DNA of 64,000 bases, taken from NCBI RefSeq assembly GCF_030013595.1, contig NZ_CP122768.1; one strand, given 5' to 3'. The notes beneath the pieces were generated by a model. The model had not been told where the DNA came from and ran no database searches. It was given only the letters and a program-made list of their open reading frames with translations. The stretch comes from Escherichia coli. GTDB lineage: Bacteria > Pseudomonadota > Gammaproteobacteria > Enterobacterales > Enterobacteriaceae. This document shows, in pieces, positions 1 to 63,872 of this stretch (its first letter is position 1; every line of letters begins with the position of its first letter). A program made the translations under genes and the position numbers.

Positions 1-522
1 GCTATCGATTTTACTCACCAGGTAGCCAATCGACACCACGCCGATGACTTTTCCATCGTCATCAAAGATTGGCGTTTTGGCACGCATCGCCATGCCAATT
101 GACCCTTTCCCGGTGATGAAGTAGCTCTCCCCATTCTCCAGCGCGCCCGGTTTGGTGAACTGCATAGGATAACCAATTTTCTCCGGATTAGGATGGTAAA
201 GACGAATCGAGTGCCGATCGCCAATCACCACATAATCGAAATCAGTATCTCTTTGTAATTTGTTAGCGATGGTCGCCAGCCTCTTGTAGTCACGCGTTTT
301 CACTGCGCTGATGATACTGTCATTAGAAGCAATAATTTTTGCCTGATTCATTGCCATGTCGCGCACATGAAGCGTTAAATAGTCCTCAAAACTGGCCGTA
401 AAATATTGCGCCAGGGCTGCAATGACAAATATTGAGAACACCAGAATCAGCAAAAAGATACGCAGCGGAAATGCCAGTCTTTGGAAAAATGCAAACTGTT
501 TATTCTCGTTAAGCTGCAACAT
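1..522 (-). CDS. dpiB: Citrate-sensing histidine kinase CitA/DpiB, N-terminal part only (gene runs off the window start)
   Basis: Reverse-strand translation from the ATG at 520-522 reads MLQLNENKQFAFFQRLAFPLRIF..., recognised as the N-terminal membrane/periplasmic region of CitA; divergent from citC as in E. coli. Confidence 0.8.
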   Translation of the reverse strand, partial: MLQLNENKQFAFFQRLAFPLRIFLLILVFSIFVIAALAQYFTASFEDYLTLHVRDMAMNQAKIIASNDSIISAVKTRDYKRLATIANKLQRDTDFDYVVIGDRHSIRLYHPNPEKIGYPMQFTKPGALENGESYFITGKGSIGMAMRAKTPIFDDDGKVIGVVSIGYLVSKIDS

Positions 523-2271: not shown

Positions 2272-3176
2272 TTTCCGCTTCGCTGCAACAACGTAAAACT
2301 CGCACCCGCCGCAGCATGTTGTTTGTACCTGGTGCCAATGCCGCGATGGTCAGCAACTCCTTCATCTACCCGGCTGATGCCCTGATGTTTGACCTCGAAG
2401 ACTCCGTGGCATTGCGTGAAAAAGACACAGCCCGCCGCATGGTTTACCACGCGCTGCAACATCCGCTGTATCGCGATATTGAAACCATTGTGCGTGTAAA
2501 CGCGCTGGATTCCGAATGGGGTGTTAACGACCTGGAAGCCGTCGTTCGCGGTGGTGCGGACGTTGTGCGTCTGCCGAAAACCGATACCGCTCAGGATGTT
2601 CTGGATATCGAAAAAGAGATCCTGCGCATCGAAAAAGCCTGTGGTCGTGAACCCGGCAGCACCGGCTTGCTGGCGGCGATTGAATCTCCGCTGGGCATTA
2701 CCCGCGCAGTGGAAATCGCTCACGCTTCCGAGCGTTTGATCGGTATCGCCCTCGGTGCAGAAGACTATGTGCGCAACCTGCGTACAGAACGCTCCCCGGA
2801 AGGAACTGAACTGCTGTTCGCACGCTGCTCCATTTTGCAGGCCGCGCGCTCTGCGGGTATTCAGGCGTTCGATACCGTCTATTCCGACGCTAACAACGAA
2901 GCCGGATTCCTGCAAGAAGCCGCCCACATCAAACAGCTGGGCTTTGACGGCAAATCGCTGATCAACCCGCGTCAGATTGATCTGCTGCACAACCTCTACG
3001 CACCGACCCAGAAAGAAGTGGATCACGCCCGCCGCGTCGTAGAAGCCGCTGAAGCCGCCGCTCGCGAAGGCCTCGGCGTGGTTTCCCTGAATGGCAAGAT
3101 GGTGGACGGTCCGGTTATCGATCGCGCCCGTCTGGTGCTCTCCCGCGCAGAACTTTCCGGCATCCGCGAAGAATAA
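2268..3176 (+). CDS. citE: Citrate lyase beta subunit (citryl-CoA lyase)
   Basis: ORF 2253-3176; start at ATG 2268 ([10 protein letters not shown]...) gives 302 aa; ATGA overlap with the citD stop. Confidence 0.9.
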
Positions 3177-3186
3177 GGCAATCAAA

Positions 3187-4719
3187 ATGACGCAGAAAAT
3201 TGAACAATCTCAACGACAAGAACGGGTAGCGGCCTGGAATCGTCGCGCTGAATGCGATCTTGCCGCTTTCCAGAACTCGCCAAAGCAAACCTACCAGGCT
3301 GAAAAAGCGTGCGATCGCAAACTGTGCGCCAACCTGGAAGAAGCGATTCGTCGCTCGGGTTTACAGGACGGTATGACGGTTTCCTTCCATCACGCTTTCC
3401 GTGGCGGTGACCTGACCGTCAATATGGTGATGGACGTCATCGCGAAAATGGGCTTTAAAAACCTGACTCTGGCCTCCAGCTCCCTGAGTGATTGCCATGC
3501 GCCGCTGGTAGAACACATTCGCCAGGGCGTGGTTACCCGCATTTATACCTCTGGCCTGCGCGGTCCACTGGCGGAAGAAATCTCCCGTGGTCTGCTGGCG
3601 GAACCGGTGCAAATCCACTCTCACGGCGGACGTGTGCATCTGGTACAGAGCGGCGAACTGAATATCGACGTGGCTTTCCTCGGCGTCCCGTCCTGTGATG
3701 AATTTGGTAATGCCAACGGCTACACCGGTAAAGCCTGCTGCGGCTCCCTCGGCTATGCAATGGTTGATGCCGACAACGCGAAACAGGTTGTGATGCTCAC
3801 TGAAGAACTGCTGCCTTATCCACATAATCCGGCAAGCATTGAGCAAGATCAGGTTGATCTGATCGTCAAAGTTGATCGCGTTGGCGATGCCGCGAAAATC
3901 GGCGCTGGCGCGACCCGTATGACCACTAACCCGCGCGAACTGCTTATTGCCCGTAGCGCTGCGGATGTGATTGTCAACTCAGGCTACTTTAAAGAAGGTT
4001 TCTCCATGCAGACCGGCACCGGCGGCGCATCGCTGGCGGTAACCCGTTTCCTGGAAGACAAAATGCGTAGCCGCGATATTCGCGCCGACTTCGCCCTTGG
4101 CGGTATTACCGCAACGATGGTTGATCTGCACGAAAAAGGTCTGATCCGCAAACTGCTGGATGTACAGAGCTTTGACAGCCACGCGGCACAATCGCTGGCC
4201 CGTAACCCCAATCACATCGAAATCAGCGCCAACCAGTACGCTAACTGGGGTTCAAAAGGCGCATCGGTTGATCGTCTCGACGTGGTGGTACTGAGCGCGC
4301 TGGAAATTGACACCCAGTTCAACGTTAACGTGCTGACCGGCTCTGACGGCGTACTGCGTGGTGCTTCCGGTGGTCACTGCGATACCGCGATTGCCTCTGC
4401 ACTTTCCATCATCGTCGCACCGCTGGTACGCGGTCGTATTCCGACTCTGGTGGATAACGTGCTGACCTGCATCACCCCGGGCTCCAGTGTCGATATTCTG
4501 GTCACAGACCACGGTATCGCAGTTAACCCGGCACGTCCGGAATTGGCAGAACGTCTGCAGGAAGCGGGGATCAAAGTGGTTTCTATTGAGTGGCTGCGTG
4601 AACGTGCGCGTCTGCTGACCGGTGAACCACAGCCGATTGAATTCACCGACCGCGTCGTTGCCGTTGTGCGTTACCGCGATGGCTCGGTGATCGATGTTGT
4701 GCATCAGGTGAAGGAATAA
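3187..4719 (+). CDS. citF: Citrate lyase alpha subunit (citrate CoA-transferase)
   Basis: ORF 3091-4719; start at ATG 3187 (MTQKIEQSQRQE...) gives 510 aa. Confidence 0.9.
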   Translation: MTQKIEQSQRQERVAAWNRRAECDLAAFQNSPKQTYQAEKACDRKLCANLEEAIRRSGLQDGMTVSFHHAFRGGDLTVNMVMDVIAKMGFKNLTLASSSLSDCHAPLVEHIRQGVVTRIYTSGLRGPLAEEISRGLLAEPVQIHSHGGRVHLVQSGELNIDVAFLGVPSCDEFGNANGYTGKACCGSLGYAMVDADNAKQVVMLTEELLPYPHNPASIEQDQVDLIVKVDRVGDAAKIGAGATRMTTNPRELLIARSAADVIVNSGYFKEGFSMQTGTGGASLAVTRFLEDKMRSRDIRADFALGGITATMVDLHEKGLIRKLLDVQSFDSHAAQSLARNPNHIEISANQYANWGSKGASVDRLDVVVLSALEIDTQFNVNVLTGSDGVLRGASGGHCDTAIASALSIIVAPLVRGRIPTLVDNVLTCITPGSSVDILVTDHGIAVNPARPELAERLQEAGIKVVSIEWLRERARLLTGEPQPIEFTDRVVAVVRYRDGSVIDVVHQVKE

Positions 4720-4722
4720 GCC

Positions 4723-6127
<1,405 letters not shown>

Positions 6128-6176
6128 TAATTTAAGCACTTGATAAAATTGGAATATTAATTGTCGGAGAACCCGT

Positions 6177-7640
6177 ATGTCTTTAGCAAAAGATAATATA
6201 TGGAAATTATTGGCGCCCCTGGTGGTGATGGGTGTCATGTTTCTTATCCCTGTACCTGACGGTATGCCGCCGCAGGCGTGGCATTACTTTGCAGTGTTTG
6301 TGGCAATGATTGTCGGCATGATCCTCGAGCCAATTCCGGCAACGGCGATCAGTTTTATTGCGGTTACTATTTGCGTTATTGGCAGTAATTACCTGCTCTT
6401 TGATGCCAAAGAATTAGCTGACCCAGCGTTTAATGCGCAAAAACAGGCGCTGAAATGGGGTCTGGCTGGTTTTTCCAGCACCACGGTATGGCTGGTATTT
6501 GGCGCATTTATTTTTGCATTAGGGTATGAAGTTTCCGGGTTAGGCCGTCGTATTGCCCTTTTCCTGGTGAAATTCATGGGCAAACGCACGCTGACGTTGG
6601 GTTATGCGATTGTCATTATCGACATTCTGCTGGCACCGTTTACACCGTCCAACACCGCGCGTACCGGGGGTACGGTTTTTCCGGTCATTAAAAACCTGCC
6701 GCCGCTGTTTAAATCATTCCCGAACGATCCGTCCGCGCGTCGTATTGGCGGCTATTTGATGTGGATGATGGTCATTAGTACCAGTCTGAGTTCGTCCATG
6801 TTTGTCACCGGTGCGGCACCAAACGTGCTGGGTCTGGAGTTCGTCAGCAAAATTGCCGGTATCCAGATTAGCTGGTTGCAGTGGTTCCTCTGCTTCCTGC
6901 CGGTTGGGGTTATCTTGCTTATCATTGCGCCGTGGCTTTCCTACGTACTGTACAAACCGGAAATCACACACAGTGAAGAAGTGGCAACCTGGGCGGGTGA
7001 TGAACTAAAAACCATGGGTGCGCTGACGCGCAGAGAGTGGACGCTGATTGGCCTTGTATTGCTCAGCTTAGGTTTGTGGGTATTTGGCAGTGAAGTCATT
7101 AATGCTACTGCGGTAGGTCTGCTGGCAGTTTCGCTGATGCTGGCGCTGCACGTTGTGCCGTGGAAAGACATTACTCGCTATAACAGCGCATGGAACACGC
7201 TGGTCAACCTGGCAACGCTGGTTGTGATGGCTAATGGCCTGACCCGTTCTGGCTTTATCGACTGGTTCGCCAACACGATGAGTACACACCTGGAAGGCTT
7301 CTCACCAAACGCAACGGTGATTGTACTGGTTCTGGTGTTCTACTTTGCACACTACCTGTTTGCTAGCCTGTCTGCGCACACCGCAACCATGCTGCCGGTT
7401 ATTCTGGCCGTCGGTAAAGGTATTCCGGGCGTACCAATGGAACAACTGTGTATTCTGCTGGTGCTGTCTATCGGTATCATGGGCTGTCTGACGCCGTATG
7501 CAACCGGTCCTGGGGTGATTATTTACGGCTGTGGCTATGTGAAATCAAAAGATTACTGGCGTCTTGGCGCAATCTTCGGGGTGATTTACATCTCTATGTT
7601 GCTGTTGGTTGGCTGGCCGATTCTCGCCATGTGGAACTAA
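6177..7640 (+). CDS. citT: Citrate/succinate antiporter
   Basis: 487-aa highly hydrophobic ORF downstream of citG. Confidence 0.9.
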   Translation: MSLAKDNIWKLLAPLVVMGVMFLIPVPDGMPPQAWHYFAVFVAMIVGMILEPIPATAISFIAVTICVIGSNYLLFDAKELADPAFNAQKQALKWGLAGFSSTTVWLVFGAFIFALGYEVSGLGRRIALFLVKFMGKRTLTLGYAIVIIDILLAPFTPSNTARTGGTVFPVIKNLPPLFKSFPNDPSARRIGGYLMWMMVISTSLSSSMFVTGAAPNVLGLEFVSKIAGIQISWLQWFLCFLPVGVILLIIAPWLSYVLYKPEITHSEEVATWAGDELKTMGALTRREWTLIGLVLLSLGLWVFGSEVINATAVGLLAVSLMLALHVVPWKDITRYNSAWNTLVNLATLVVMANGLTRSGFIDWFANTMSTHLEGFSPNATVIVLVLVFYFAHYLFASLSAHTATMLPVILAVGKGIPGVPMEQLCILLVLSIGIMGCLTPYATGPGVIIYGCGYVKSKDYWRLGAIFGVIYISMLLLVGWPILAMWN

Positions 7641-7671
7641 TACGTTCGCCAAACGCTGAATAAATCATCAC

Positions 7672-7707
7672 GCCCGCCAGGTAAGCACACCTGGCGGGCT
7701 TTTTTAT
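7672..7707 (+). terminator. Rho-independent terminator after citT
   Basis: GC-rich inverted repeat cccgccagg / cctggcggg with a 9-nt loop, followed by a T-run (cttttttat). Confidence 0.75.
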
Positions 7708-7753
7708 GATTTAATAGATAGTATTCAGTGTATGTATGAGTTCCACACCCATT

Positions 7754-8560
7754 ATGAAAGCATTCTGGCGTAACGCCGCGTTGCTCGCGGTTTCTCTGCT
7801 TCCCTTCTCTTCTGCCAACGCCGTAGCGTTGCAGGCAAAACAGTATGGCGATTTTGATCGCTATGTCCTGGCCCTCTCATGGCAAACCGGATTTTGCCAG
7901 AGTCAACACGATCGAAATCGTAACGAACGAGATGAATGTCGCCTGCAAACCGAAACGACCAACAAAGCTGATTTTCTGACCGTACATGGTCTGTGGCCAG
8001 GATTGCCTAAATCGGTTGCTGCCCGTGGTGTTGATGAACGCCGCTGGATGCGCTTCGGTTGCGCTACTCGCCCAATCCCGAATCTACCAGAAGCGCGCGC
8101 CAGCCGAATGTGTTCATCGCCGGAAACCGGGTTATCGCTGGAAACGGCCGCTAAACTAAGTGAAGTCATGCCAGGAGCTGGCGGACGTTCCTGCCTGGAA
8201 CGCTACGAATATGCCAAACACGGTGCCTGCTTTGGTTTTGATCCAGACGCATACTTCGGCACGATGGTACGCCTGAATCAAGAAATTAAAGAGAGCGAAG
8301 CCGGAAAATTCCTTGCGGATAACTACGGTAAAACAGTGAGCCGCCGTGACTTTGACGCCGCCTTTGCCAAAAGCTGGGGAAAAGAGAACGTGAAAGCAGT
8401 TAAGCTAACGTGCCAGGGTAACCCTGCGTATTTGACTGAAATTCAGATCTCGATCAAAGCTGACGCCATCAACGCTCCGCTTTCTGCCAACTCATTCTTG
8501 CCACAACCACACCCAGGCAACTGTGGCAAAACCTTTGTGATTGATAAAGCAGGTTATTAA
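7754..8560 (+). CDS. rna: Periplasmic ribonuclease I
   Basis: ORF 7736-8560; start at MKAFWRNAALLAVSLLPFSSANA (signal peptide) gives 268 aa. Confidence 0.9.
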   Translation: MKAFWRNAALLAVSLLPFSSANAVALQAKQYGDFDRYVLALSWQTGFCQSQHDRNRNERDECRLQTETTNKADFLTVHGLWPGLPKSVAARGVDERRWMRFGCATRPIPNLPEARASRMCSSPETGLSLETAAKLSEVMPGAGGRSCLERYEYAKHGACFGFDPDAYFGTMVRLNQEIKESEAGKFLADNYGKTVSRRDFDAAFAKSWGKENVKAVKLTCQGNPAYLTEIQISIKADAINAPLSANSFLPQPHPGNCGKTFVIDKAGY

Positions 8561-8789
8561 TCCTCTGATTTACAAAACACGCTAATTCGTCTTCCATAAA
8601 CCATGACGATTAAGATTTATACATAATGCGCTACATTGAGGAATTCCCTGAATGTGACGCAAATCACTTCAAAGAGTGAGCAACAGTCAGTATCATCATG
8701 TGAGTTAAACCCTCGCCGCCTGACGGTGAGGGTTTTCTTTTGGGTATGTTTATCTGCGACACTCGCAGTACCGACGACATGGAGTAAAA

Positions 8790-9200
8790 ATGTCCAGACC
8801 AACTATCATCATTAACGACCTGGATGCCGAACGCATCGATATTCTGCTGGAGCAACCCGCCTATGCTGGTTTGCCAATCGCCGACGCGTTAAACGCAGAG
8901 TTGGATCGCGCCCAAATGTGTTCGCCAGAAGAGATGCCACACGACGTGGTGACAATGAACAGCCGGGTTAAATTCCGCAATCTTAGCGATGGCGAAGTGC
9001 GTGTGCGCACGCTGGTGTATCCGGCAAAAATGACCGACAGCAATACTCAGCTTTCCGTTATGGCTCCGGTAGGTGCTGCACTGCTGGGGCTGCGCGTTGG
9101 CGATTCCATTCACTGGGAACTTCCGGGCGGCGTTGCAACCCACCTTGAAGTGCTGGAACTCGAATACCAGCCAGAAGCTGCTGGCGACTACCTGCTTTAA
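8790..9200 (+). CDS. rnk: Regulator of nucleoside diphosphate kinase (GreA/GreB-like)
   Basis: 136-aa [25 protein letters not shown]... Confidence 0.9.
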
Positions 9201-15999: not shown

Positions 16000-16600
16000 C
16001 GCAGGATTTAACCCAATTTCTCGCCAGCTTGCCGGAAGACGATCGCATCAAAGCGATTAATGAAATCCGCATGGCGATCCATCAGGTTAGCCCCTTTCGA
16101 GAAGAGCCAGTGGATTGCGTTCTGTGGGTTAAAACAGCCAACTTATGCCTAATGATTACAACCCAAACAACGTGGCACCACCCGAAAAAAAACTGCTGAA
16201 AAAATCCATTGAAATAGATGGTTTTACCCAACCCATTGTGGTCACGCATACGGATAAAAATGCCCTGGAAATCGTGGATGGTTTTCACCGCCATGAAATT
16301 GGTAAAGGCTCATCATCGTTAAAATTACGCTTAAAAGGTTATTTGCCGGTGACCTGTCTGGAAGGTACGCGTAATCAACGCATCGCCGCGACTATTCGTC
16401 ATAACCGCGCTCGTGGACGTCACCAAATCACTGCCATGTCAGAAATCGTCCGTGAACTCAGCCAGTTGGGATGGGACGATCATAAAATTGGCAAAGAGCT
16501 GGGAATGGACAGCGACGAAGTGCTACGCCTGAAGCAAATTAACGGCCTGCAAGAGTTGTTTGCCGACCGTCAATATTCCCGCGCCTGGACGGTTAAATAG
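15972..16600 (+). pseudogene. ybdM: ParB/sulfiredoxin-like protein (IbrB-like), apparently frameshifted
   Basis: Two overlapping ORFs in different frames (15972-16199 and 16145-16600) together span 629 nt, one short of the 630 nt expected for the ~209-aa protein; second part carries a DGFHRH ParB-like motif. Confidence 0.6.
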
Positions 16601-41742: not shown

Positions 41743-43080
41743 CATAAGCGCTAACTTAAGGGTTGTGGTATTACGCCTGATATGATTTAACGTGCCGATG
41801 AATTACTCTCACGATAACTGGTCAGCAATTCTGGCCCATATTGGTAAGCCCGAAGAACTGGATACTTCGGCACGTAATGCCGGGGCTCTAACCCGCCGCC
41901 GCGAAATTCGTGATGCTGCAACTCTGCTACGTCTGGGGCTGGCTTACGGCCCCGGGGGGATGTCATTACGTGAAGTCACTGCATGGGCTCAGCTCCATGA
42001 CGTTGCAACATTATCTGACGTGGCTCTCCTGAAGCGGCTGCGGAATGCCGCCGACTGGTTTGGCATACTTGCCGCACAAACACTTGCTGTACGCGCCGCA
42101 GTTACGGGTTGTACAAGCGGAAAGAGATTGCGTCTTGTCGATGGAACAGCAATCAGTGCGCCCGGGGGCGGCAGCGCTGAATGGCGACTACATATGGGAT
42201 ATGATCCTCATACCTGTCAGTTCACTGATTTTGAGCTAACCGACAGCAGAGACGCTGAACGGCTGGACCGATTTGCGCAAACGGCAGACGAGATACGCAT
42301 TGCTGACCGGGGATTCGGTTCGCGTCCCGAATGTATCCGCTCACTTGCTTTTGGAGAAGCTGATTATATCGTCCGGGTTCACTGGCGAGGATTGCGCTGG
42401 TTAACTGCAGAAGGAATGCGCTTTGACATGATGGGTTTTCTGCGCGGGCTGGATTGCGGTAAGAACGGTGAAACCACTGTAATGATAGGCAATTCAGGTA
42501 ATAAAAAAGCCGGAGCTCCCTTTCCGGCACGTCTCATTGCCGTATCACTTCCTCCCGAAAAAGCATTAATCAGTAAAACCCGACTGCTCAGCGAGAATCG
42601 TCGAAAAGGACGAGTAGTTCAGGCGGAAACGCTGGAAGCAGCGGGCCATGTGCTATTGCTAACATCATTACCGGAAGATGAATATTCAGCAGAGCAAGTG
42701 GCTGATTGTTACCGTCTGCGATGGCAAATTGAACTGGCTTTTAAGCGGCTCAAAAGTTTGCTGCACCTGGATGCTTTGCGTGCAAAGGAACCTGAACTCG
42801 CGAAAGCGTGGATATTTGCTAATCTACTCGCCGCATTTTTAATTGACGACATAATCCAGCCATCGCTGGATTTCCCCCCAGAAGTGCCGGATCCGAAAAG
42901 AAGAACTAACTCGTTGTGGAGAATAACAAAAATGGTCATCTGGAGCTTACAGGTGGCCATTCGTGGGACAGTATCCCTGACAGCCTACAAAACGCAATTG
43001 AAGAACGCGAGGCATCGTCTTAACGAGGCACCGAGGCGTCGCATTCTTCAGATGGTTCAACCCTTAAGTTAGCGCTTATG
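41743..43080 (+). mobile_element. IS186 insertion sequence (IS4 family), complete, 1338 bp
   Basis: 23-bp terminal inverted repeats cataagcgctaacttaagggttg (41743-41765) and caacccttaagttagcgcttatg (43058-43080); identical 10-bp direct repeats ggattactcc at 41733-41742 and 43081-43090. Confidence 0.9.
41960..43072 (+). CDS. insL: IS186 transposase (DDE)
   Basis: ORF 41792-43072; start placed at MSLREVTAWAQL... to give the ~370 aa I recall for InsL; start uncertain. Confidence 0.75.
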   Translation: MSLREVTAWAQLHDVATLSDVALLKRLRNAADWFGILAAQTLAVRAAVTGCTSGKRLRLVDGTAISAPGGGSAEWRLHMGYDPHTCQFTDFELTDSRDAERLDRFAQTADEIRIADRGFGSRPECIRSLAFGEADYIVRVHWRGLRWLTAEGMRFDMMGFLRGLDCGKNGETTVMIGNSGNKKAGAPFPARLIAVSLPPEKALISKTRLLSENRRKGRVVQAETLEAAGHVLLLTSLPEDEYSAEQVADCYRLRWQIELAFKRLKSLLHLDALRAKEPELAKAWIFANLLAAFLIDDIIQPSLDFPPEVPDPKRRTNSLWRITKMVIWSLQVAIRGTVSLTAYKTQLKNARHRLNEAPRRRILQMVQPLS

Positions 43081-43254: not shown

Positions 43255-43680
43255 GTTTATATTGCCTCCATGCGAAGAAGGGACTACCATCCAAATTGTC
43301 TGGTTTGGAGTGGCAGCCCCAGGGTTGATAGAAATATCTCCTGGGGCTTCATCTTTCCAGACCTCAGAGTAAACCTGAAACCGGAAAGCTTCAGGCACCC
43401 GCCGTTATCTTACCCTTCCTCAGCAAAATAGCTGTTTATTTATACAGTGAGTCCTGTTTCGGACTTCTCACTCCTCATTTGATCAACTGAAGCTGAACCC
43501 GTTTTTTTCTGCATGCCTCAATCGTCAAAATTCTTCGCCACCAGCCAGCTCTGCCATAACTTGTCACATTGCAGAAGTAGCCAAACTTCTTCAGTCACAA
43601 TCAGTTCACCATCACCAAAAAAAGAAACATTCCAGAACTTCCGCATCTCGCCCAGTCGCTCCCACTTCTATACTGAATAG

Positions 43681-49230: not shown

Positions 49231-52200
49231 TTATTTCCGTACCCGATGTCGGTGCAGCCACATCAGCTTATACGCCGCCGGGATAATAAACAGCGACAGC
49301 AAAGGCGCGGTGATCATGCCGCCAATCATCGGCGCGGCAATCCGGCTCATCACCTCTGAACCTGCTCCCGTTCCCCACAGAATCGGCAGCAGACCAGCGA
49401 TAATCACCGCCACCGTCATCGCTTTCGGGCGCACGCGCAGGACCGCGCCGTGATACAACGCCTCATCCAGCTTCTGCTCGCTGAATGTTTGCGGATTATT
49501 CAACGACGGCTCGGCCTCTATGGCGTGACGTAAATACATCAGCATCACCACGCCAAATTCGGCGGCGACCCCGGCAAGGGCAATAAAACCGGTGCCCGTC
49601 GCCACGGAAAGATGAAAGCCCATCCACCACAGCAACCAGATGCCACCCACCAGCGCAAACGGTACGCTGCTGATAATCAGCAACGCTTCGCCCACCCGAC
49701 GGAACGCCAAATACAACAGCACGAAGATGATCATCAACGTCATCGGCACCATGAGTTTCAGCTTATGGTTGGCGCGTTCCAGTAGCTCGAACTGCCCGGA
49801 GAATGCCACGCTGGTGCCCGGTTTTAACTGTACTTTTTCAGCTATCGCTTTTTGCAGATCGTGAACCACCGACACTATGTCACGATCGCGGGCATCGATA
49901 TAAATCCAGCTCGTCGGGCGCGCATTCTCGGTTTTCAGCATCGACGGTCCGGTAGAGACTTTAACGTCAGCCACGTCTGCCAGGGTGATTTGCTGCTTCA
50001 TCGGCGTCAGAATCGGCAACTGGCGCAGCGCCTGCGGACTATCGCGCCAGCTTTGCGGATAACGCAGATTAATTGGATAACGGGCAATCCCTTCCACCGT
50101 TTCGCCAACCATCGCCCCGCCCACCGCAGATGTCACAAACAATTGCACATCCGCCACCGTCATACCGTAACGCGCGGCTTTTTCACGGTTAATCTCAACG
50201 TTGATATAGCGCCCACCTTCCAGACGCTCGGCAAGCGCAGAAGCTACGCCTGGCACCGTTCGCGCCACTTCTTCAATTTGCTCCGCCATCGCGTCGATAT
50301 CCGCCAGCACAGTGCCGGAAACTTTAATGCCGATGGGGCTTTTAATGCCGGTTGAGAGCATATCGATACGGTTACGAATTGGCGGCACCCACAGATTCGC
50401 CAGCCCCGGCAGACGCACGGTGTTATCCAGTTCCTCAATGATTTTGTCCATCGTCATGCCTGGCCGCCACTGATCTTGTGGCTTAAGCTGGATGGTCGTT
50501 TCTACCATCTCCAGCGGAGCAGAATCGGTGGCGGTTTCCGCTTTCCCGGTTTTGCCAAATACCCGCGCCACTTCAGGTACGCTCATAATCAGCTTGTCGG
50601 TTTTTTGCAGCATACTCGCCGCCTCTGCTGCGGAAATCCCCGGCAGCGTCGATGGCATATACAACAAGTCGCCTTCATTGATCTGCGGTAAAAATTCCCC
50701 GCCAACTTTATTGAGCGGCCAGAGAACCGTCAGCACCGAAAGCGCTGCCACCAGCAGCGTGGTTTTTGGCCAGTGCAGTACTTTCAGCAACAGCGGATGA
50801 TAAGCACGAATCAAAAAGCGATTGAGCGGGTTACTGCTTTCTGGCGGAATTTTGCCACGGATCCAGTAACCCATCAGGATAGGGATCACTATGATCGCCA
50901 GCAGCGCCGCACCCGCCATCGCATACGTTTTGGTGAACGCCAGCGGGCCAAACAGACGCCCTTCCTGCCCTTCCAGGGTGAAGATCGGGATAAACGACAA
51001 CGTGATAATCAGCAGACTGATAAACAACGCCGGACCCACTTCAACAGACGCATCGGTGATCACCTGCCAGCGCGTTTTATTATCCAGCGTGGCGTCAGGA
51101 TGCTGGTGCTGCCACTCTTCCAGCCGTTTATGCGCATTCTCGATCATGACGATAGCGGCATCGACCATCGCCCCGACGGCAATCGCAATGCCGCCCAGCG
51201 ACATAATATTGGCGTTCAGTCCCTGAAATTGCATGACAATAAAAGCAATACACAACCCCAGCGGCAACGAAATAATCGCCACCAGCGCCGAGCGCACATG
51301 CCAGAGAAACAGCGCACAGACTACCGCCACCACAATAAACTCTTCCAGCAACTTGCCGCTGAGGTTGTCGATGGCGCGGTCAATGAGCTGGCTGCGATCG
51401 TATGTTGTAACTATCTCCACGCCTTCCGGCAGACTACTTTTCAGCGTTTCCAGTTTGTCTTTCACGGCGGCGATCACTTCTCGGGCGTTTTTGCCGGAGC
51501 GCAGGATCACCACCCCGCCCGCCACTTCGCCTTCGCCGTTCAGTTCGGCAATGCCCCGGCGCATCTCCGGGCCAATCTGGACCTTCGCAACATCGCGCAG
51601 ATAAACGGGCACGCCATTTTCACTGGCTTTTAAAACGATGTGATTAAAGTCGTCGAGCGTTTGCAGATAGCCGCTGGCGCGCACCATATATTCCGCTTCC
51701 GCCAGTTCGATCGACGAACCGCCCGCTTCCTGGTTTGAAGCATCCAGCGCGCTTTTTACTTCGGCGAGACTGATGCCATATTGCGCCAGGCGCTGAGGAT
51801 CGATAACCACCTGATACTCTTTCACCACACCGCCTACCGACGCCACTTCCGCAACGTCAGGAATGGTTTTCAGCTCATATTTGAGAAACCAGTCCTGCAA
51901 TGAGCGTAAATCGGCAAGATCGTGCTTACCGCTGCGATCCACCAGTGCATATTCATAGATCCAGCCAACACCCGTGGCATCTGGCCCCAGCTCGGCGCTG
52001 ACTCCCGCAGGGAGCTTACCCTGTACCTGGTTGAGGTACTCCAGCACCCGCGAACGCGCCCAGTACGGATCGGTGCCATCTTCGAAAATGACATACACAT
52101 AAGAGTCGCCAAACTGCGAGAAACCGCGCACAGTCTTCGCGCCAGGCACCGACAACATGGTGGTGGTTAGCGGATAAGTCACCTGATTTTCAACGATTTG

Positions 52201-57635: not shown

Positions 57636-57784
57636 TTATTCAGCAAACGGCAACTTTTATAACCAGTGTAAAAATAACGTGCCGCAATAGTCATACCTAT
57701 TAATGGTAAAAAGCTGTCACAATTCATAAAAAACCTTAATATACGCCACCCTAAACATAACCAGCGTTAATGTAAGGTTTTTGT

Positions 57785-60022
57785 GTGGACTGGCTTCTTG
57801 ATGTTTTTGCTACCTGGCTCTACGGCTTAAAAGTAATCGCGATAACGTTAGCGGTCATCATGTTCATCAGCGGGCTGGACGATTTTTTTATTGATGTCGT
57901 CTACTGGGTACACCGCATTAAACGCAAGTTGAGTGTTTATCGCCGCTACCCGCGAATGAGTTACCGCGAACTGTATAAACCAGATGAAAAACCGTTAGCG
58001 ATCATGGTTCCGGCGTGGAATGAAACGGGCGTCATCGGCAATATGGCCGAGCTGGCGGCGACCACGCTCGACTATGAAAACTATCATATCTTTGTTGGCA
58101 CCTACCCCAACGACCCCGATACTCAGCGTGATGTTGATGAAGTGTGCGCTCGCTTCCCAAACGTGCATAAGGTAGTCTGCGCGCGTCCTGGCCCCACCAG
58201 CAAAGCCGACTGCCTGAACAACGTGCTGGACGCCATCACCCAGTTTGAGCGTAGCGCCAATTTCGCTTTTGCTGGTTTTATTCTGCATGACGCCGAAGAC
58301 GTAATTTCACCGATGGAATTGCGTCTGTTCAACTATCTGGTCGAGCGTAAAGATCTGATTCAGATCCCGGTATACCCATTCGAACGCGAATGGACGCACT
58401 TCACCAGCATGACTTACATTGATGAGTTTTCAGAACTGCATGGCAAAGATGTTCCGGTGCGTGAAGCCCTCGCCGGACAGGTGCCCAGCGCAGGCGTCGG
58501 TACTTGTTTCAGCCGCCGCGCCGTGACCGCACTGTGAGCTGACGGTGACGGTATTGCTTTCGACGTGCAGAGTCTTACTGAAGATTACGACATTGGTTTC
58601 CGCCTGAAAGAAAAAGGTATGACGGAAATTTTTGTCCGTTTTCCGGTGGTGGACGAAGCCAAAGAACGCGAGCAGCGTAAATTTTTACAGCACGCACGGA
58701 CGTCAAACATGATCTGCGTGCGCGAATATTTCCCCGATACCTTTTCGACTGCGGTTCGACAAAAATCTCGCTGGATCATCGGCATTGTTTTCCAGGGCTT
58801 TAAAACCCACAAATGGACCTCCAGCCTGACGCTGAACTACTTTCTCTGGCGCGACCGCAAAGGGGCAATCAGTAACTTTGTCAGCTTCCTCGCGATGCTG
58901 GTGATGATCCAGCTTTTGCTGTTACTGGCGTATGAAAGTTTGTGGCCCGATGCCTGGCATTTCCTTTCTATTTTCAGCGGCAGCGCATGGTTAATGACCC
59001 TGCTGTGGCTAAACTTTGGTTTGATGGTTAACCGCATCGTGCAGCGGGTGATTTTTGTCACTGGCTACTACGGTCTGACGCAGGGGCTGCTATCTGTCCT
59101 GCGTCTTTTCTGGGGCAACCTGATTAACTTCATGGCCAACTGGCGCGCGTTAAAACAGGTACTTCAACACGGCGATCCACGTCGCGTCGCGTGGGATAAA
59201 ACAACGCATGACTTCCCCAGCGTGACTGGCGATACCCGCTCGTTGCGCCCGTTAGGCCAAATTCTGCTGGAAAATCAGGTCATCACTGAAGAACAACTCG
59301 ATACAGCACTGCGTAATCGCGTCGAAGGTCTACGCCTGGGCGGTTCAATGCTGATGCAGGGGCTGATTAGCGCCGAACAGCTGGCACAGGCGCTGGCAGA
59401 GCAAAACGGCGTGGCGTGGGAGTCGATCGACGCCTGGCAGATCCCTTCATCACTGATTGCCGAAATGCCGGCCTCCGTGGCGCTGCATTATGCAGTACTG
59501 CCGCTGCGTCTGGAAAATGATGAGTTAATTGTCGGCAGTGAAGATGGTATTGACCCGGTTTCGCTGGCGGCCCTGACGCGTAAAGTCGGACGCAAAGTGC
59601 GTTACGTCATTGTTCTGCGGGGACAAATTGTCACGGGGTTACGCCACTGGTATGCGCGCCGACGCGGTCACGATCCGCGGGCAATGTTGTACAATGCGGT
59701 TCAGCATCAGTGGCTCACGGAACAGCAGGCCGGTGAAATCTGGCGGCAATATGTGCCGCATCAGTTCCTGTTCGCCGAAATACTGACCACGCTCGGTCAT
59801 ATTAATCGTTCAGCAATTAACGTGTTGTTATTGCGCCATGAACGTAGTTCTCTGCCGCTCGGCAAGTTTTTGGTCACCGAAGGCGTTATCAGCCAGGAAA
59901 CGTTGGATCGCGTCCTGACAATTCAACGCGAATTACAAGTTTCGATGCAATCACTATTACTCAAAGCAGGTTTAAACACAGAACAGGTTGCGCAACTGGA
60001 GTCCGAAAATGAAGGAGAATAA
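57785..60022 (+). pseudogene. nfrB: Phage N4 adsorption protein B (inner membrane glycosyltransferase-like) interrupted by an in-frame TGA
   Basis: ORFs 57785-58537 and 58565-60022 are in the same frame, separated only by TGA at 58535-58537; total 745 sense codons plus stop, matching full-length NfrB as I recall it. Confidence 0.7.
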
Positions 60023-62981
60023 CCTTAATCGCGTCATCGGATGGTCTGGTTTACTGCTGACGTCTTTATTGAGTACCAGCGCACTCGCAGACAATATCGG
60101 CACCAGCGCAGAAGAGCTGGGGCTGAGCGATTATCGCCATTTTGTTATTTATCCCCGTCTCGACAAGGCGCTGAAGGCACAGAAAAATAACGACGAAGCA
60201 ACCGCCATCCGCGAATTTGAATATATACACCAGCAGGTGCCGGATAATATTCCGCTAACTTTATACCTTGCGGAAGCCTATCGCCATTTTGGTCATGATG
60301 ACCGGGCGCGGCTGTTACTTGAGGATCAACTGAAACGTCACCCAGGAGATGCCCGACTTGAGCGCAGTCTGGCGGCTATTCCAGTTGAAGTGAAAAGCGT
60401 TACGACTGTTGAAGAACTGCTTGCCCAGCAAAAAGCGTGCGATGCTGCGCCGACCCTGCGTTGTCGCAGTGAAGTTGGGCAGAATGCCCTGCGGCTGGCA
60501 CAATTACCTGTCGCCAGAGCGCAACTGAACGATGCGACGTTTGCTGCATCGCCGGAAGGAAAAACGCTGCGAACCGATCTGCTGCAACGGGCAATCTACC
60601 TGAAGCAATGGTCCCAGGCAGATACGCTATACAATGAAGCACGCCAGCAGAACACATTAAGCGCGGCAGAACGCCGCCAGTGGTTTGATGTGCTTCTTGC
60701 CGGGCAGCTGGACGATCGGATCCTGACGCTGCAATCACAGGGGATCTTCACCGATCCGCAGTCATATATTACTTACGCGACCGCGCTGGCTTATCGTGAC
60801 GAAAAAGCACGCCTCCAGCGTTATCTCATTGAAAATACTCCGCTATTTACCACGGACGCCCAAGAGAAAAGTTGGCTCTATCTGTTATCTAAATACAGCG
60901 CCAACCCCGTTCTGGCGTTGGCGAATTATACGGTACAGTTTGCCGATAACCGCCAGTATGTTGTTGGCGCGACGCTACCGGTGCTGTTAAAAGAAGGTCA
61001 GTACGACGCAGCGCAAAAACTGCTCGCCACCCTCCCCGCCAATGAAATGCTTGAGGAGCGTTATACCGTTAGCGTGGCGACCCGTAACAAGGCTGAAGCT
61101 CTGCGTCTGGCACGATTGCTGTATCAGCAAGAACCGGCAAATCTTACCCGCCTGGATCAACTGACCTGGCAACTGATGCAGAACGAGCAGTCACGTGAAG
61201 CTGCCGATTTATTGCTGCAACGCTATCCTTTCCAGGGCGATGCGCGTGTCAGCCAGACTTTAATGGCGCGACTGGCGTCTCTGCTGGAAAGTCATCCTTA
61301 CCTGGCAACTCCGGCGAAGGTGGCGATTTTATCGAAACCCTTACCGCTGGCGGAGCAACGTCAGTGGCAAAGTCAGTTGCCGGGTATTGCAGATAATTGC
61401 CCGGCAATAGTTCGCTTGCTGGGCGATATGTCGCCTTCCTACGATGCCGCCGCCTGGAACCGTCTGGCAAAGTGTTATCGGGACACGCTACCCGGTGTGG
61501 CGTTGTATGCATGGCTTCAGGCCGAACAACGACAACCGAACGCCTGGCAACATCGTGCGGTAGCCTATCAGGCGTATCAGGTTGAGGACTACGCCACCGC
61601 ACTGGCGGCCTGGCAGAAAATCAGTCTTCACGACATGAGCAATGAGGATCTGCTTGCTGCTGCCAATACCGCCCAGGCGGCAGGAAATGGTGCGGCTCGC
61701 GATCGCTGGCTTCAGCAGGCAGAACAACGTGGGCTGGGAAACAATGCCCTCTACTGGTGGCTGCATGCGCAACGTTACATTCCTGGTCAGCCGGAACTCG
61801 CACTGAACGATCTCACGCGCTCAATCAATATTGCGCCTTCTGCCAACGCTTACGTTGCGCGGGCGACAATTTATCGCCAACGTCATAATGTCCCGGCGGC
61901 GGTGAGTGATTTGCGCGCCGCGCTGGAACTGGAACCGAATAATAGCAACACCCAGGCAGCGCTCGGTTACGCCTTGTGGGATAGCGGTGATATCGCACAG
62001 TCGCGGGAAATGCTCGAACAGGCGCATAAAGGGCTACCGGACGATCCGGCACTTATCCGACAACTGGCCTACGTGAACCAGCGTCTGGATGACATGCCTG
62101 CGACGCAGCACTACGCCCGGCTGGTGATTGATGACATTGATAATCAGGCGCTGATAACCCCACTGACCCCAGAGCAAAATCAGCAACGCTTCAATTTCCG
62201 CCGTCTGCATGAGGAGGTCGGTCGCCGCTGGACGTTCAGTTTCGATTCTTCCATCGGCTTGCGTTCCGGCGCGATGAGTACCGCTAACAATAATGTCGGC
62301 GGCGCAGCGCCAGGGAAAAGCTATCGTAGCTACGGGCAACTGGAAGCCGAGTACCGCATCGGACGCAATATGCTGCTGGAAGGCGACCTGCTCTCAGTTT
62401 ATAGCCGCGTCTTTGCCGATACCGGAGAAAACGGGGTGATGATGCCGGTGAAAAATCCGATGTCCGGCACCGGTCTGCGCTGGAAGCCGCTGCGCGATCA
62501 GATCGTTTTCCTCGCCGTCGAACAGCAGTTGCCGCTGAACGGGCAAAATGGCGCATCCGATACCATGCTGCGCGCCAGCGCCTCATTCTTTAATGGCGGC
62601 AAATACAGCGACGAATGGCACCCGAACGGTTCAGGCTGGTTTGCCCAAAACCTGTACCTCGATGCGGCGCAATATATCCGCCAGGATATTCAGGCGTGGA
62701 CGGCAGATTATCGCGTAAGCTGGCATCAGAAGGTAGCTAACGGACAGACTATTGAGCCTTACGCTCACGTTCAGGACAACGGCTATCGTGATAAAGGCAC
62801 TCAGGGCGCGCAGCTTGGCGGTGTCGGGGTCCGCTGGAATATCTGGACCGGCGAGACGCACTACGACGCCTGGCCGCACAAAGTCAGTCTCGGCGTCGAG
62901 TATCAACATACCTTTAAGGCGATTAATCAACGTAACGGAGAGCGCAACAACGCGTTTCTCACCATTGGAGTGCACTGGTAA
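60009..62981 (+). CDS. nfrA: Phage N4 adsorption protein A (outer membrane, TPR-containing)
   Basis: ORF 59988-62981; start at MKENNLNRVIGWSGLLLTSLLSTSALA gives 990 aa; overlaps the nfrB 3' end. Confidence 0.85.
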   Translation: MKENNLNRVIGWSGLLLTSLLSTSALADNIGTSAEELGLSDYRHFVIYPRLDKALKAQKNNDEATAIREFEYIHQQVPDNIPLTLYLAEAYRHFGHDDRARLLLEDQLKRHPGDARLERSLAAIPVEVKSVTTVEELLAQQKACDAAPTLRCRSEVGQNALRLAQLPVARAQLNDATFAASPEGKTLRTDLLQRAIYLKQWSQADTLYNEARQQNTLSAAERRQWFDVLLAGQLDDRILTLQSQGIFTDPQSYITYATALAYRDEKARLQRYLIENTPLFTTDAQEKSWLYLLSKYSANPVLALANYTVQFADNRQYVVGATLPVLLKEGQYDAAQKLLATLPANEMLEERYTVSVATRNKAEALRLARLLYQQEPANLTRLDQLTWQLMQNEQSREAADLLLQRYPFQGDARVSQTLMARLASLLESHPYLATPAKVAILSKPLPLAEQRQWQSQLPGIADNCPAIVRLLGDMSPSYDAAAWNRLAKCYRDTLPGVALYAWLQAEQRQPNAWQHRAVAYQAYQVEDYATALAAWQKISLHDMSNEDLLAAANTAQAAGNGAARDRWLQQAEQRGLGNNALYWWLHAQRYIPGQPELALNDLTRSINIAPSANAYVARATIYRQRHNVPAAVSDLRAALELEPNNSNTQAALGYALWDSGDIAQSREMLEQAHKGLPDDPALIRQLAYVNQRLDDMPATQHYARLVIDDIDNQALITPLTPEQNQQRFNFRRLHEEVGRRWTFSFDSSIGLRSGAMSTANNNVGGAAPGKSYRSYGQLEAEYRIGRNMLLEGDLLSVYSRVFADTGENGVMMPVKNPMSGTGLRWKPLRDQIVFLAVEQQLPLNGQNGASDTMLRASASFFNGGKYSDEWHPNGSGWFAQNLYLDAAQYIRQDIQAWTADYRVSWHQKVANGQTIEPYAHVQDNGYRDKGTQGAQLGGVGVRWNIWTGETHYDAWPHKVSLGVEYQHTFKAINQRNGERNNAFLTIGVHW

Positions 62982-63872
62982 ATGCGTAAGTTCATTTTCG
63001 TATTGCTGACACTGCTTTTGGTCAGCCCTTTTTCCTTTGCGATGAAAGGTATTATCTGGCAACCACAAAACCGTGATAGTCAGGTTACCGATACCCAGTG
63101 GCAGGGGCTGATGAGTCAGTTACGTTTGCAAGGCTTCGATACCCTGGTTTTGCAATGGACTCGTTACGGCGATGCATTCACCCAGCCAGAACAGCGCGCG
63201 TTATTGTTTAAGCGTGCAGCAGCTGCGCAACAGGCTGGCCTGAAGCTGATTGTCGGGCTGAATGCCGATCCGGAATTTTTTATGCACCAGAAACAGTCAT
63301 CCGCGGCGCTGGAAAGCTATCTTAATCGCCTGCTGGCTGCCGATCTCCAGCAAGACAGATTATGGAGCGCCGCGCCTGGCGTAACGCCGGATGGCTGGTA
63401 CATCAGCGCGGAAATTGACGACCTGAACTGGCGCAGCGAAGCCGCCCGTCAACCGTTGCTGACATGGTTAAACAACGCGCAGCGGTTGATTAGCGATGTT
63501 TCAGCAAAACCGGTTTATATCAGTAGTTTTTTCGCCGGAAACATGTCGCCCGATGGCTATCGCCAACTGCTGGAACAAGTTAAAACAACCGGCGTTAATG
63601 TCTGGGTGCAGGATGGCAGCGGCGTGAATAAACTTACCGCTGAACAGCGTGAACGTTATCTACAGGCCAGCGCCGATTGCCAGAGTTCCGCCCCAGCAAG
63701 CGGCATTGTTTATGAACTGTTTGTCGCCGGCAAAGGCAAAACCTTTACAGCGAAACCGAAACCGGATGCAGAGATCGCCTCGCTGTTAGCGAAACGTTCC
63801 TCTTGCGGTAAAGACACGCTCTATTTCTCTCTGCGCTATTTGCCCATCGCACACGGCATTCTCGAGTATTAA
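62982..63872 (+). CDS. ybcH: Conserved protein of unknown function downstream of nfrA
   Basis: 296-aa ORF with N-terminal signal-like sequence MRKFIFVLLTLLLVSPFSFA, starting immediately at the nfrA stop. Confidence 0.75.
   Translation: MRKFIFVLLTLLLVSPFSFAMKGIIWQPQNRDSQVTDTQWQGLMSQLRLQGFDTLVLQWTRYGDAFTQPEQRALLFKRAAAAQQAGLKLIVGLNADPEFFMHQKQSSAALESYLNRLLAADLQQDRLWSAAPGVTPDGWYISAEIDDLNWRSEAARQPLLTWLNNAQRLISDVSAKPVYISSFFAGNMSPDGYRQLLEQVKTTGVNVWVQDGSGVNKLTAEQRERYLQASADCQSSAPASGIVYELFVAGKGKTFTAKPKPDAEIASLLAKRSSCGKDTLYFSLRYLPIAHGILEY

Follow-up and report, generated by a model that had tools for sequence, protein, structure and literature searches.

NfrB is a c-di-GMP-activated glycosyltransferase of the inner membrane that makes a ManNAc-based glycan, the initial receptor of phage N4, with NfrA as the outer-membrane component (PMC8669469, PMC8669472), so that the preliminary description of this DNA was inexact in calling nfrB a phage N4 receptor gene. 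According to Junkermeier and Hengge, NfrB carries the processive GT2 signatures DxD, TED and QxxRW, has two membrane helices and binds c-di-GMP through its MshEN domain (Kd ~1 uM); none of the D169A, D267A and W330A variants restored N4 plating, and strains lacking nfrB or nfrA were not lysed by N4, with ybcH being dispensable (PMC8669469). The same model is presented by Sellner et al., who named the product NGR, a ManNAc-based glycan also used by Vequintavirinae, phi92-like phages and Enquatrovirus, and who report that Vequintavirinae and phi92-like phages depend likewise on nfrB and wecB (PMC8669472). In both accounts, deletion of nfrB or nfrA leads to N4 resistance (PMC8669469, PMC8669472). 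Inactivated alleles have also been found outside targeted genetics: natural lesions of nfrB and dgcJ, comprising insertion elements, deletions and premature stops, occur for example in all E. coli B strains according to Sellner et al. 2021 (PMC8669472), and a laboratory-selected nfrB W391* mutation in strain TK001 gave phage resistance that was rescued by complementation (PMC12548472).

The stretch of DNA analyzed here (hereafter the window) is 64,000 nt of an E. coli genome (contig NZ_CP122768.1, assembly GCF_030013595.1) in which nfrB is interrupted at codon 251. We consider it probable, at roughly 0.88, that this is a genuine, vertically inherited nfrB nonsense allele of one young E. coli clone, created by a T->G change at 58536 that turned Leu251 from TTA into TGA. 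The closest comparison is with the nfrB null and active-site mutants of K-12, which concern the same gene in the same nfrB-nfrA-ybcH operon with its 14-nt overlap and in which the glycosyltransferase is lost and N4 no longer adsorbs or plates (PMC8669469, PMC8669472). Those mutants, however, are laboratory deletions or single-residue substitutions, whereas the window holds a natural nonsense mutation known from its sequence. The W391* allele of TK001 is, like ours, a single-base nfrB nonsense mutation, but it truncates the gene 140 codons later and was obtained by deliberate selection with phage. The natural lesions of Sellner et al. belong to the same class, natural NGR loss through disruption of nfrB, although the passage that reports them names no alleles. 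The specific L251* TGA allele appears to be undescribed, as we found no account of it in the literature searched on nfrB, though database records hold it as two proteins.

The frame is laid out as the preliminary description had claimed, opening at GTG 57785, meeting an in-phase TGA at 58535-58537 and running on to a normal stop at 60020-60022. Its count of 745 sense codons needs a small correction: the full length of 745 aa for NfrB stands, but the frame contains 250 sense codons before the TGA and 494 after it, making 744 sense codons plus the TGA at the position of Leu251. The gene, inactivated by this single internal stop, occupies 57785..60022 on the plus strand (745 codon positions and the terminal stop), the strand on which its parts, nfrA and ybcH also lie, and is collinear with the annotated nfrB of K-12 and three other genomes. 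Translation signals are in place upstream, with a Shine-Dalgarno UAAGG at 57773-57777 and a gtGTG start (GTG 57785-57787; together 57773..57787), in agreement with the listing of nfrB among gtGTG-start genes with a UAAGG Shine-Dalgarno sequence (PMC9841429). Two open reading frames in the same phase were listed mechanically, 57785..58537 (250 aa) and 58565..60022 (485 aa). The first corresponds to the N-terminal fragment and its TGA and retains the first membrane helix and the DxD motif (DAED 169-172). The remainder of the gene, 58538..60022, would be untranslated; the 485-aa frame from GTG 58565 lies within it, and it holds TED 265-267, QKSRW 326-330, membrane helices and the MshEN c-di-GMP-binding domain.

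Chance adjacency of two open reading frames was ruled out by a two-piece match to the NCBIfam equivalog NF008411 (NfrB) and by an indel-free alignment to annotated nfrB of K-12, C4, HCP5S3_I2 and 18KM2445. The N-terminal piece matches profile positions 1-244 with 531.8 bits and the C-terminal piece positions 256-722 with 749 bits; the cut-off of 1170 bits is exceeded by the two summed and by neither singly. A 301-base query around the stop matched 5,058 of 5,426 complete RefSeq E. coli genomes, where the annotation reads 'cyclic di-3',5'-guanylate-activated glycosyltransferase NfrB'; four of the matches to this part of nfrB were on plasmids rather than chromosomes. The surroundings are those of K-12, with the order cusRS, nfrB, nfrA, ybcH collinear with annotated genomes and the operon context, including the 14-nt overlap of nfrB and nfrA, preserved. 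Downstream, nfrA (60009..62981, 990 aa) is intact, its start overlapping the nfrB end by those 14 nt, with zero differences from the annotated collinear genome and a match to NF007302 of 1884 bits over residues 1-990. The third operon gene, ybcH (62982..63872, 296 aa, DUF4434), is intact as well (NF007404, 517.9 bits over 1-296). The uninterrupted 745-codon frame that marks a functional NfrB member is broken by the TGA at codon 251 and, judged on its sequence, the locus is a remnant of the nfrB gene and not a functional member of the family.

To identify the ancestral codon, we compared the window base by base with K-12 and the three complete genomes most similar to it (C4, HCP5S3_I2 from a pig and 18KM2445 from a dog), an alignment that the preliminary description had proposed. 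Codon 251 is TTA (Leu) in all four, indicating that the stop at 58535..58537 was made by one T->G transversion at 58536. Against K-12, the window nfrB has 45 differences, 43 of them synonymous, the two exceptions being the stop and R43H. Codon 43 (57911..57913) is CAC (His) here and CGC (Arg) in the four references, a derived G->A change at 57912. With Leu251 and Arg43 restored, the protein is exactly K-12 NfrB, a sequence present on at least 1,000 contigs. That only these two residues differ from the K-12 protein indicates that the decay is recent, and the proposal of a single recent nonsense substitution was borne out by the ancestral TTA in every reference, by R43H as the sole other amino-acid change and by intact nfrA and ybcH. 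For the distribution of the mutation, we ran megablast with a 41-mer centered on the variant base, in which every 28-base word includes the variant, so that a match requires that base. The G version at 58536 matched none of the 5,426 complete RefSeq E. coli genomes, and the T version, serving as positive control, matched 2,976 of them. A 41-mer centered on the A at 57912 likewise found no match among these 5,426 genomes.

The preliminary description had named a sequencing error as the alternative, in which the true codon would be TTA and the TGA a fault of sequencing or assembly. Some assembly error is conceivable, given that two homopolymers in the window differ by 1 bp from those of its nearest relative, with a frameshift of ybdM in one case; however, the change at 58536 is a substitution in a non-repetitive context and not a homopolymer indel, and different projects, short-read ones included, have yielded seven other assemblies or read sets with the same G. 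The seven aligned carriers (GCA_002233385.1, GCA_002925925.1, GCA_002517595.1, GCA_021649105.1, GCA_021649405.1, SRR10990793 and ERR4899786) all read GCACTGTGAGCTGAC at the site and show 0-2 changes from the window over 6.8-15.4 kb. The exact 250-aa product is indexed as STE74310.1 / UniRef100_A0A376JY67 on about 36 contigs, and the 485-aa product is also on 36. An error in this one assembly thus has a negligible probability.

The carriers vary among themselves, with a T/C polymorphism at 49876, a C->G change at 59363 (L527V, in the dead distal part of nfrB), an A->C change at 61080 (nfrA T358P, in two assemblies) and, in SRR10990793, a 1-bp deletion at 61525 that frameshifts nfrA. The shared TGA and this variation together indicate that the allele is inherited in a young, diversifying clone and is not an artefact of one assembly. 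They also bear on whether the mutation was selected not in nature but while a single strain was handled or stored in the laboratory. STE74310.1 presumably belongs to a culture-collection genome, judging from the style of its accession, which would suit such an origin; yet the carriers are many separate assemblies and runs, mutually diverged at 49876, 59363 and 61080 and by the deletion at 61525, pointing to a circulating clone rather than a single stock and leaving a laboratory origin very unlikely. Of the complete genomes, HCP5S3_I2 (pig faeces, UK) is the nearest; it is collinear across the window, from which 18 SNPs, two 1-bp indels and an insertion element separate it, and its codon 251 is TTA. 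Three of the 18 SNPs fall in nfrB (binomial P about 0.02) and three of the four variable sites among carriers fall in the nfr operon (P about 0.18), an enrichment that is suggestive only, both values being post hoc and based on small numbers.

In HCP5S3_I2 itself, GTA stands in place of the GTG start of nfrB (window position 57787), with the PGAP start called 51 nt downstream at ATC, and judged from the sequence this start-codon change may be a separate nfrB hit in a sister lineage. LCP30S3_I5 matches the window nfrB with a score equal to that of HCP5S3_I2 (records NZ_CM149870.1 and NZ_CM149862.1 for these strains).

As to the expected effect of the stop, Pfam places the GT2 domain of K-12 NfrB at residues 70-382 and MshEN (PF05157) at 542-628, and in the conceptual translation the motifs DAED, TED and QKSRW begin at 169, 265 and 326, so that the DxD motif precedes the stop and the other two follow it. 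The C-terminal fragment scores 73.2 bits for the c-di-GMP motif NF053729, against a cut-off of 38. Translation would stop at residue 250, partway through the GT2 domain, and the product would keep DxD but would be without TED, QxxRW, the membrane helices and MshEN, the domain that receives c-di-GMP from DgcJ. Such a cell would have no NfrB polymerase activity, would export no ManNAc-based exopolysaccharide (NGR) through NfrA and would not adsorb N4 or other NGR-dependent phages (Enquatrovirus, Vequintavirinae, phi92-like). Because the stop separates D169 from D267, W330, the helices and MshEN, and because the published single substitutions abolish N4 plating, loss of NfrB activity, absence of NGR and resistance to N4-type phages are the expected consequences. 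O-antigen, capsule, dgcJ and wecB, which could bear on N4 sensitivity even with an intact nfrB, lie outside the window.

The neighboring genes could also be affected. Rho-dependent polarity and translational coupling are the general basis for such an effect: about 1.47 kb of untranslated mRNA would precede nfrA, and the 14-nt overlap, which could couple translation of nfrB and nfrA, would not be reached by ribosomes, so that nfrA and ybcH expression may be reduced. We regard this polar decrease as plausible.

The interrupted gene might instead still work: the UGA could undergo programmed recoding, as selenocysteine or by efficient readthrough, or residues 1-250 could reassemble with a second polypeptide, restarted at GTG 58565, into an active enzyme. 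Of the E. coli stop codons UGA is the leakiest, with measurable basal readthrough, and both halves of nfrB are otherwise undamaged, with nfrA and ybcH intact. Against this, codon 251 is TGA in none of the 5,426 complete genomes and a sense codon in at least 2,976, which argues against a conserved recoding site, and the 71-nt segment that begins with the stop is no more stably folded than shuffled controls (minimum free energy -14.7 kcal/mol versus a shuffled mean of -15.8, z = 0.42), with no stable hairpin just 3' of the UGA and nothing resembling SECIS. Programmed recoding or a SECIS element was rejected as unlikely, given this shuffled-like fold and the lack of conservation of the UGA among orthologues. 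The two-polypeptide version faces the lack of a Shine-Dalgarno sequence before GTG 58565, and the restart product would be without D169 and the N-terminal piece without D267 and W330, each of which is singly essential (PMC8669469). The operon is, moreover, decaying further in some carriers, with one nfrA frameshift and two cases of nfrA T358P. Retained function is therefore very unlikely indeed, although readthrough of the UGA could yield a small amount of full-length protein with Trp251, at most a trace.

We also looked up the two possible intermediates between the ancestral and the window allele, His43 with Leu251 and Arg43 with a stop at 251; for the truncated form the search was for products of exactly 250 residues, a design in which only codon-251 events could surface. 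His43 combined with Leu251 was found on a K-12-like nfrB haplotype 44-45 nt from the window (6-12 contigs), indicating that the R43H substitution arose at least twice, since this haplotype is unrelated. One run with a full-length H43 NfrB, SRR17311827, has its nfrA called as two pieces of 705 and 295 aa (6045-9016 of the stretch compared), which like the frameshifted nfrA of SRR10990793 is another instance of operon decay. Arg43 with a 250-aa product was found in SRR5688555 and in the complete genome CFSAN061770 (NZ_CP023142.1), which have identical nfrB sequences with TAA at codon 251, flagged in CFSAN061770 as an 'internal stop' by PGAP. Both candidate combinations exist, but they were rejected as ancestors of the window allele: they lie on unrelated haplotypes and represent independent events, the Arg43 and stop-251 combination reflecting either TAA or a contig that breaks off at an IS5 insertion. 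As the haplotypes read, the two candidate intermediates are uninformative about the order in which R43H and L251* arose within the window clone.

The same search revealed other lesions at this codon. TAA at this position is likewise present in ERR987417, on a second haplotype 50 nt from that of SRR5688555 and CFSAN061770, and at least six further assemblies of at least three haplotypes have contigs that end at 58533-58535. In the complete genome N4220121 (NZ_CP114227.1), IS5 is inserted at TTAG (58535-58538) with a 4-bp duplication (IS5 at 2801-4004 of the stretch compared). IS26, within-sample polymorphism and prophage integration had been candidates for the contig ends and were dropped once N4220121 showed IS5 with the TTAG duplication exactly there. 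The target rule of IS5 is YTAR, and the TTAG at codon 251 is an IS5 target on several unrelated nfrB haplotypes. The T->G, T->A and IS5 hits show that codon 251 has been destroyed in at least three different ways. The TAA251 of CFSAN061770 and the IS5 insertion of N4220121 resemble the window allele in affecting codon 251 and in a predicted 250-aa product, recorded as a PGAP 'internal stop' or as incomplete fragments, but they arose by T->A or by IS5 insertion, and the nfrB haplotypes that carry them are different ones (20-50 nt apart), indicating that these lesions are independent in origin.

Such recurrence raises the possibility that natural losses of the NGR pathway truly converge on codon 251 (CTG-TTA-GCT). 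Because the search was confined to products of exactly 250 residues, however, recurrence does not prove a hot spot. N-terminal NfrB fragments form a cluster of 1,718 distinct members that come in many lengths, and among 5,057 complete genomes only 3 have a break within 50 bases of the codon. We regard convergence on this codon as doubtful; should the hits exceed what mutation supply and look-up bias provide, they would point to strong recurrent selection against the surface glycan in wild E. coli, by phages or through the cost of the glycan.

The window allele is a loss-of-function mutation of an ordinary kind, recent and inherited within a clone; it joins many independent natural nfrB knock-outs and reveals no new mechanism. 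Natural nfrB loss is frequent and polyphyletic, as Sellner et al. had already noted (PMC8669472). What the allele adds is one circulating clone predicted to be without the NfrB-made glycan, and so refractory to N4, Vequintavirinae and phi92-like phages, a predicted resistance that is useful for phage choice and for interpreting host range. It also provides a minimally perturbed natural knock-out in which the cost and benefit of a c-di-GMP-controlled exopolysaccharide could be tested.

Elsewhere in the window, comparison with HCP5S3_I2 revealed several further differences. Of 12 coding SNPs outside nfrB (window 1-57000), 9 are non-synonymous, a proportion compatible with a very recent split or with errors left in one of the assemblies. 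At about 16131-16134, within ybdM, a four-A run replaces the five of HCP5S3_I2 and shifts the frame after about residue 54, which could be a real pseudogene or a homopolymer assembly error. An intergenic seven-A run (eight in HCP5S3_I2) lies at about 43617-43623, upstream of ybdK. Beside hokE, at 41744-43079, there is a 1,336-bp insertion absent from HCP5S3_I2, with the ends CATAAGCGCTAACTTAAGGGTTG and the direct repeat GGGGATTACTCC, that encodes an IS4-family transposase (NF033592, 132.7 bits). We take it to be IS186, which occupies a similar position in K-12, and it is probably the reason why the short-read contigs of the carrier clone start here.
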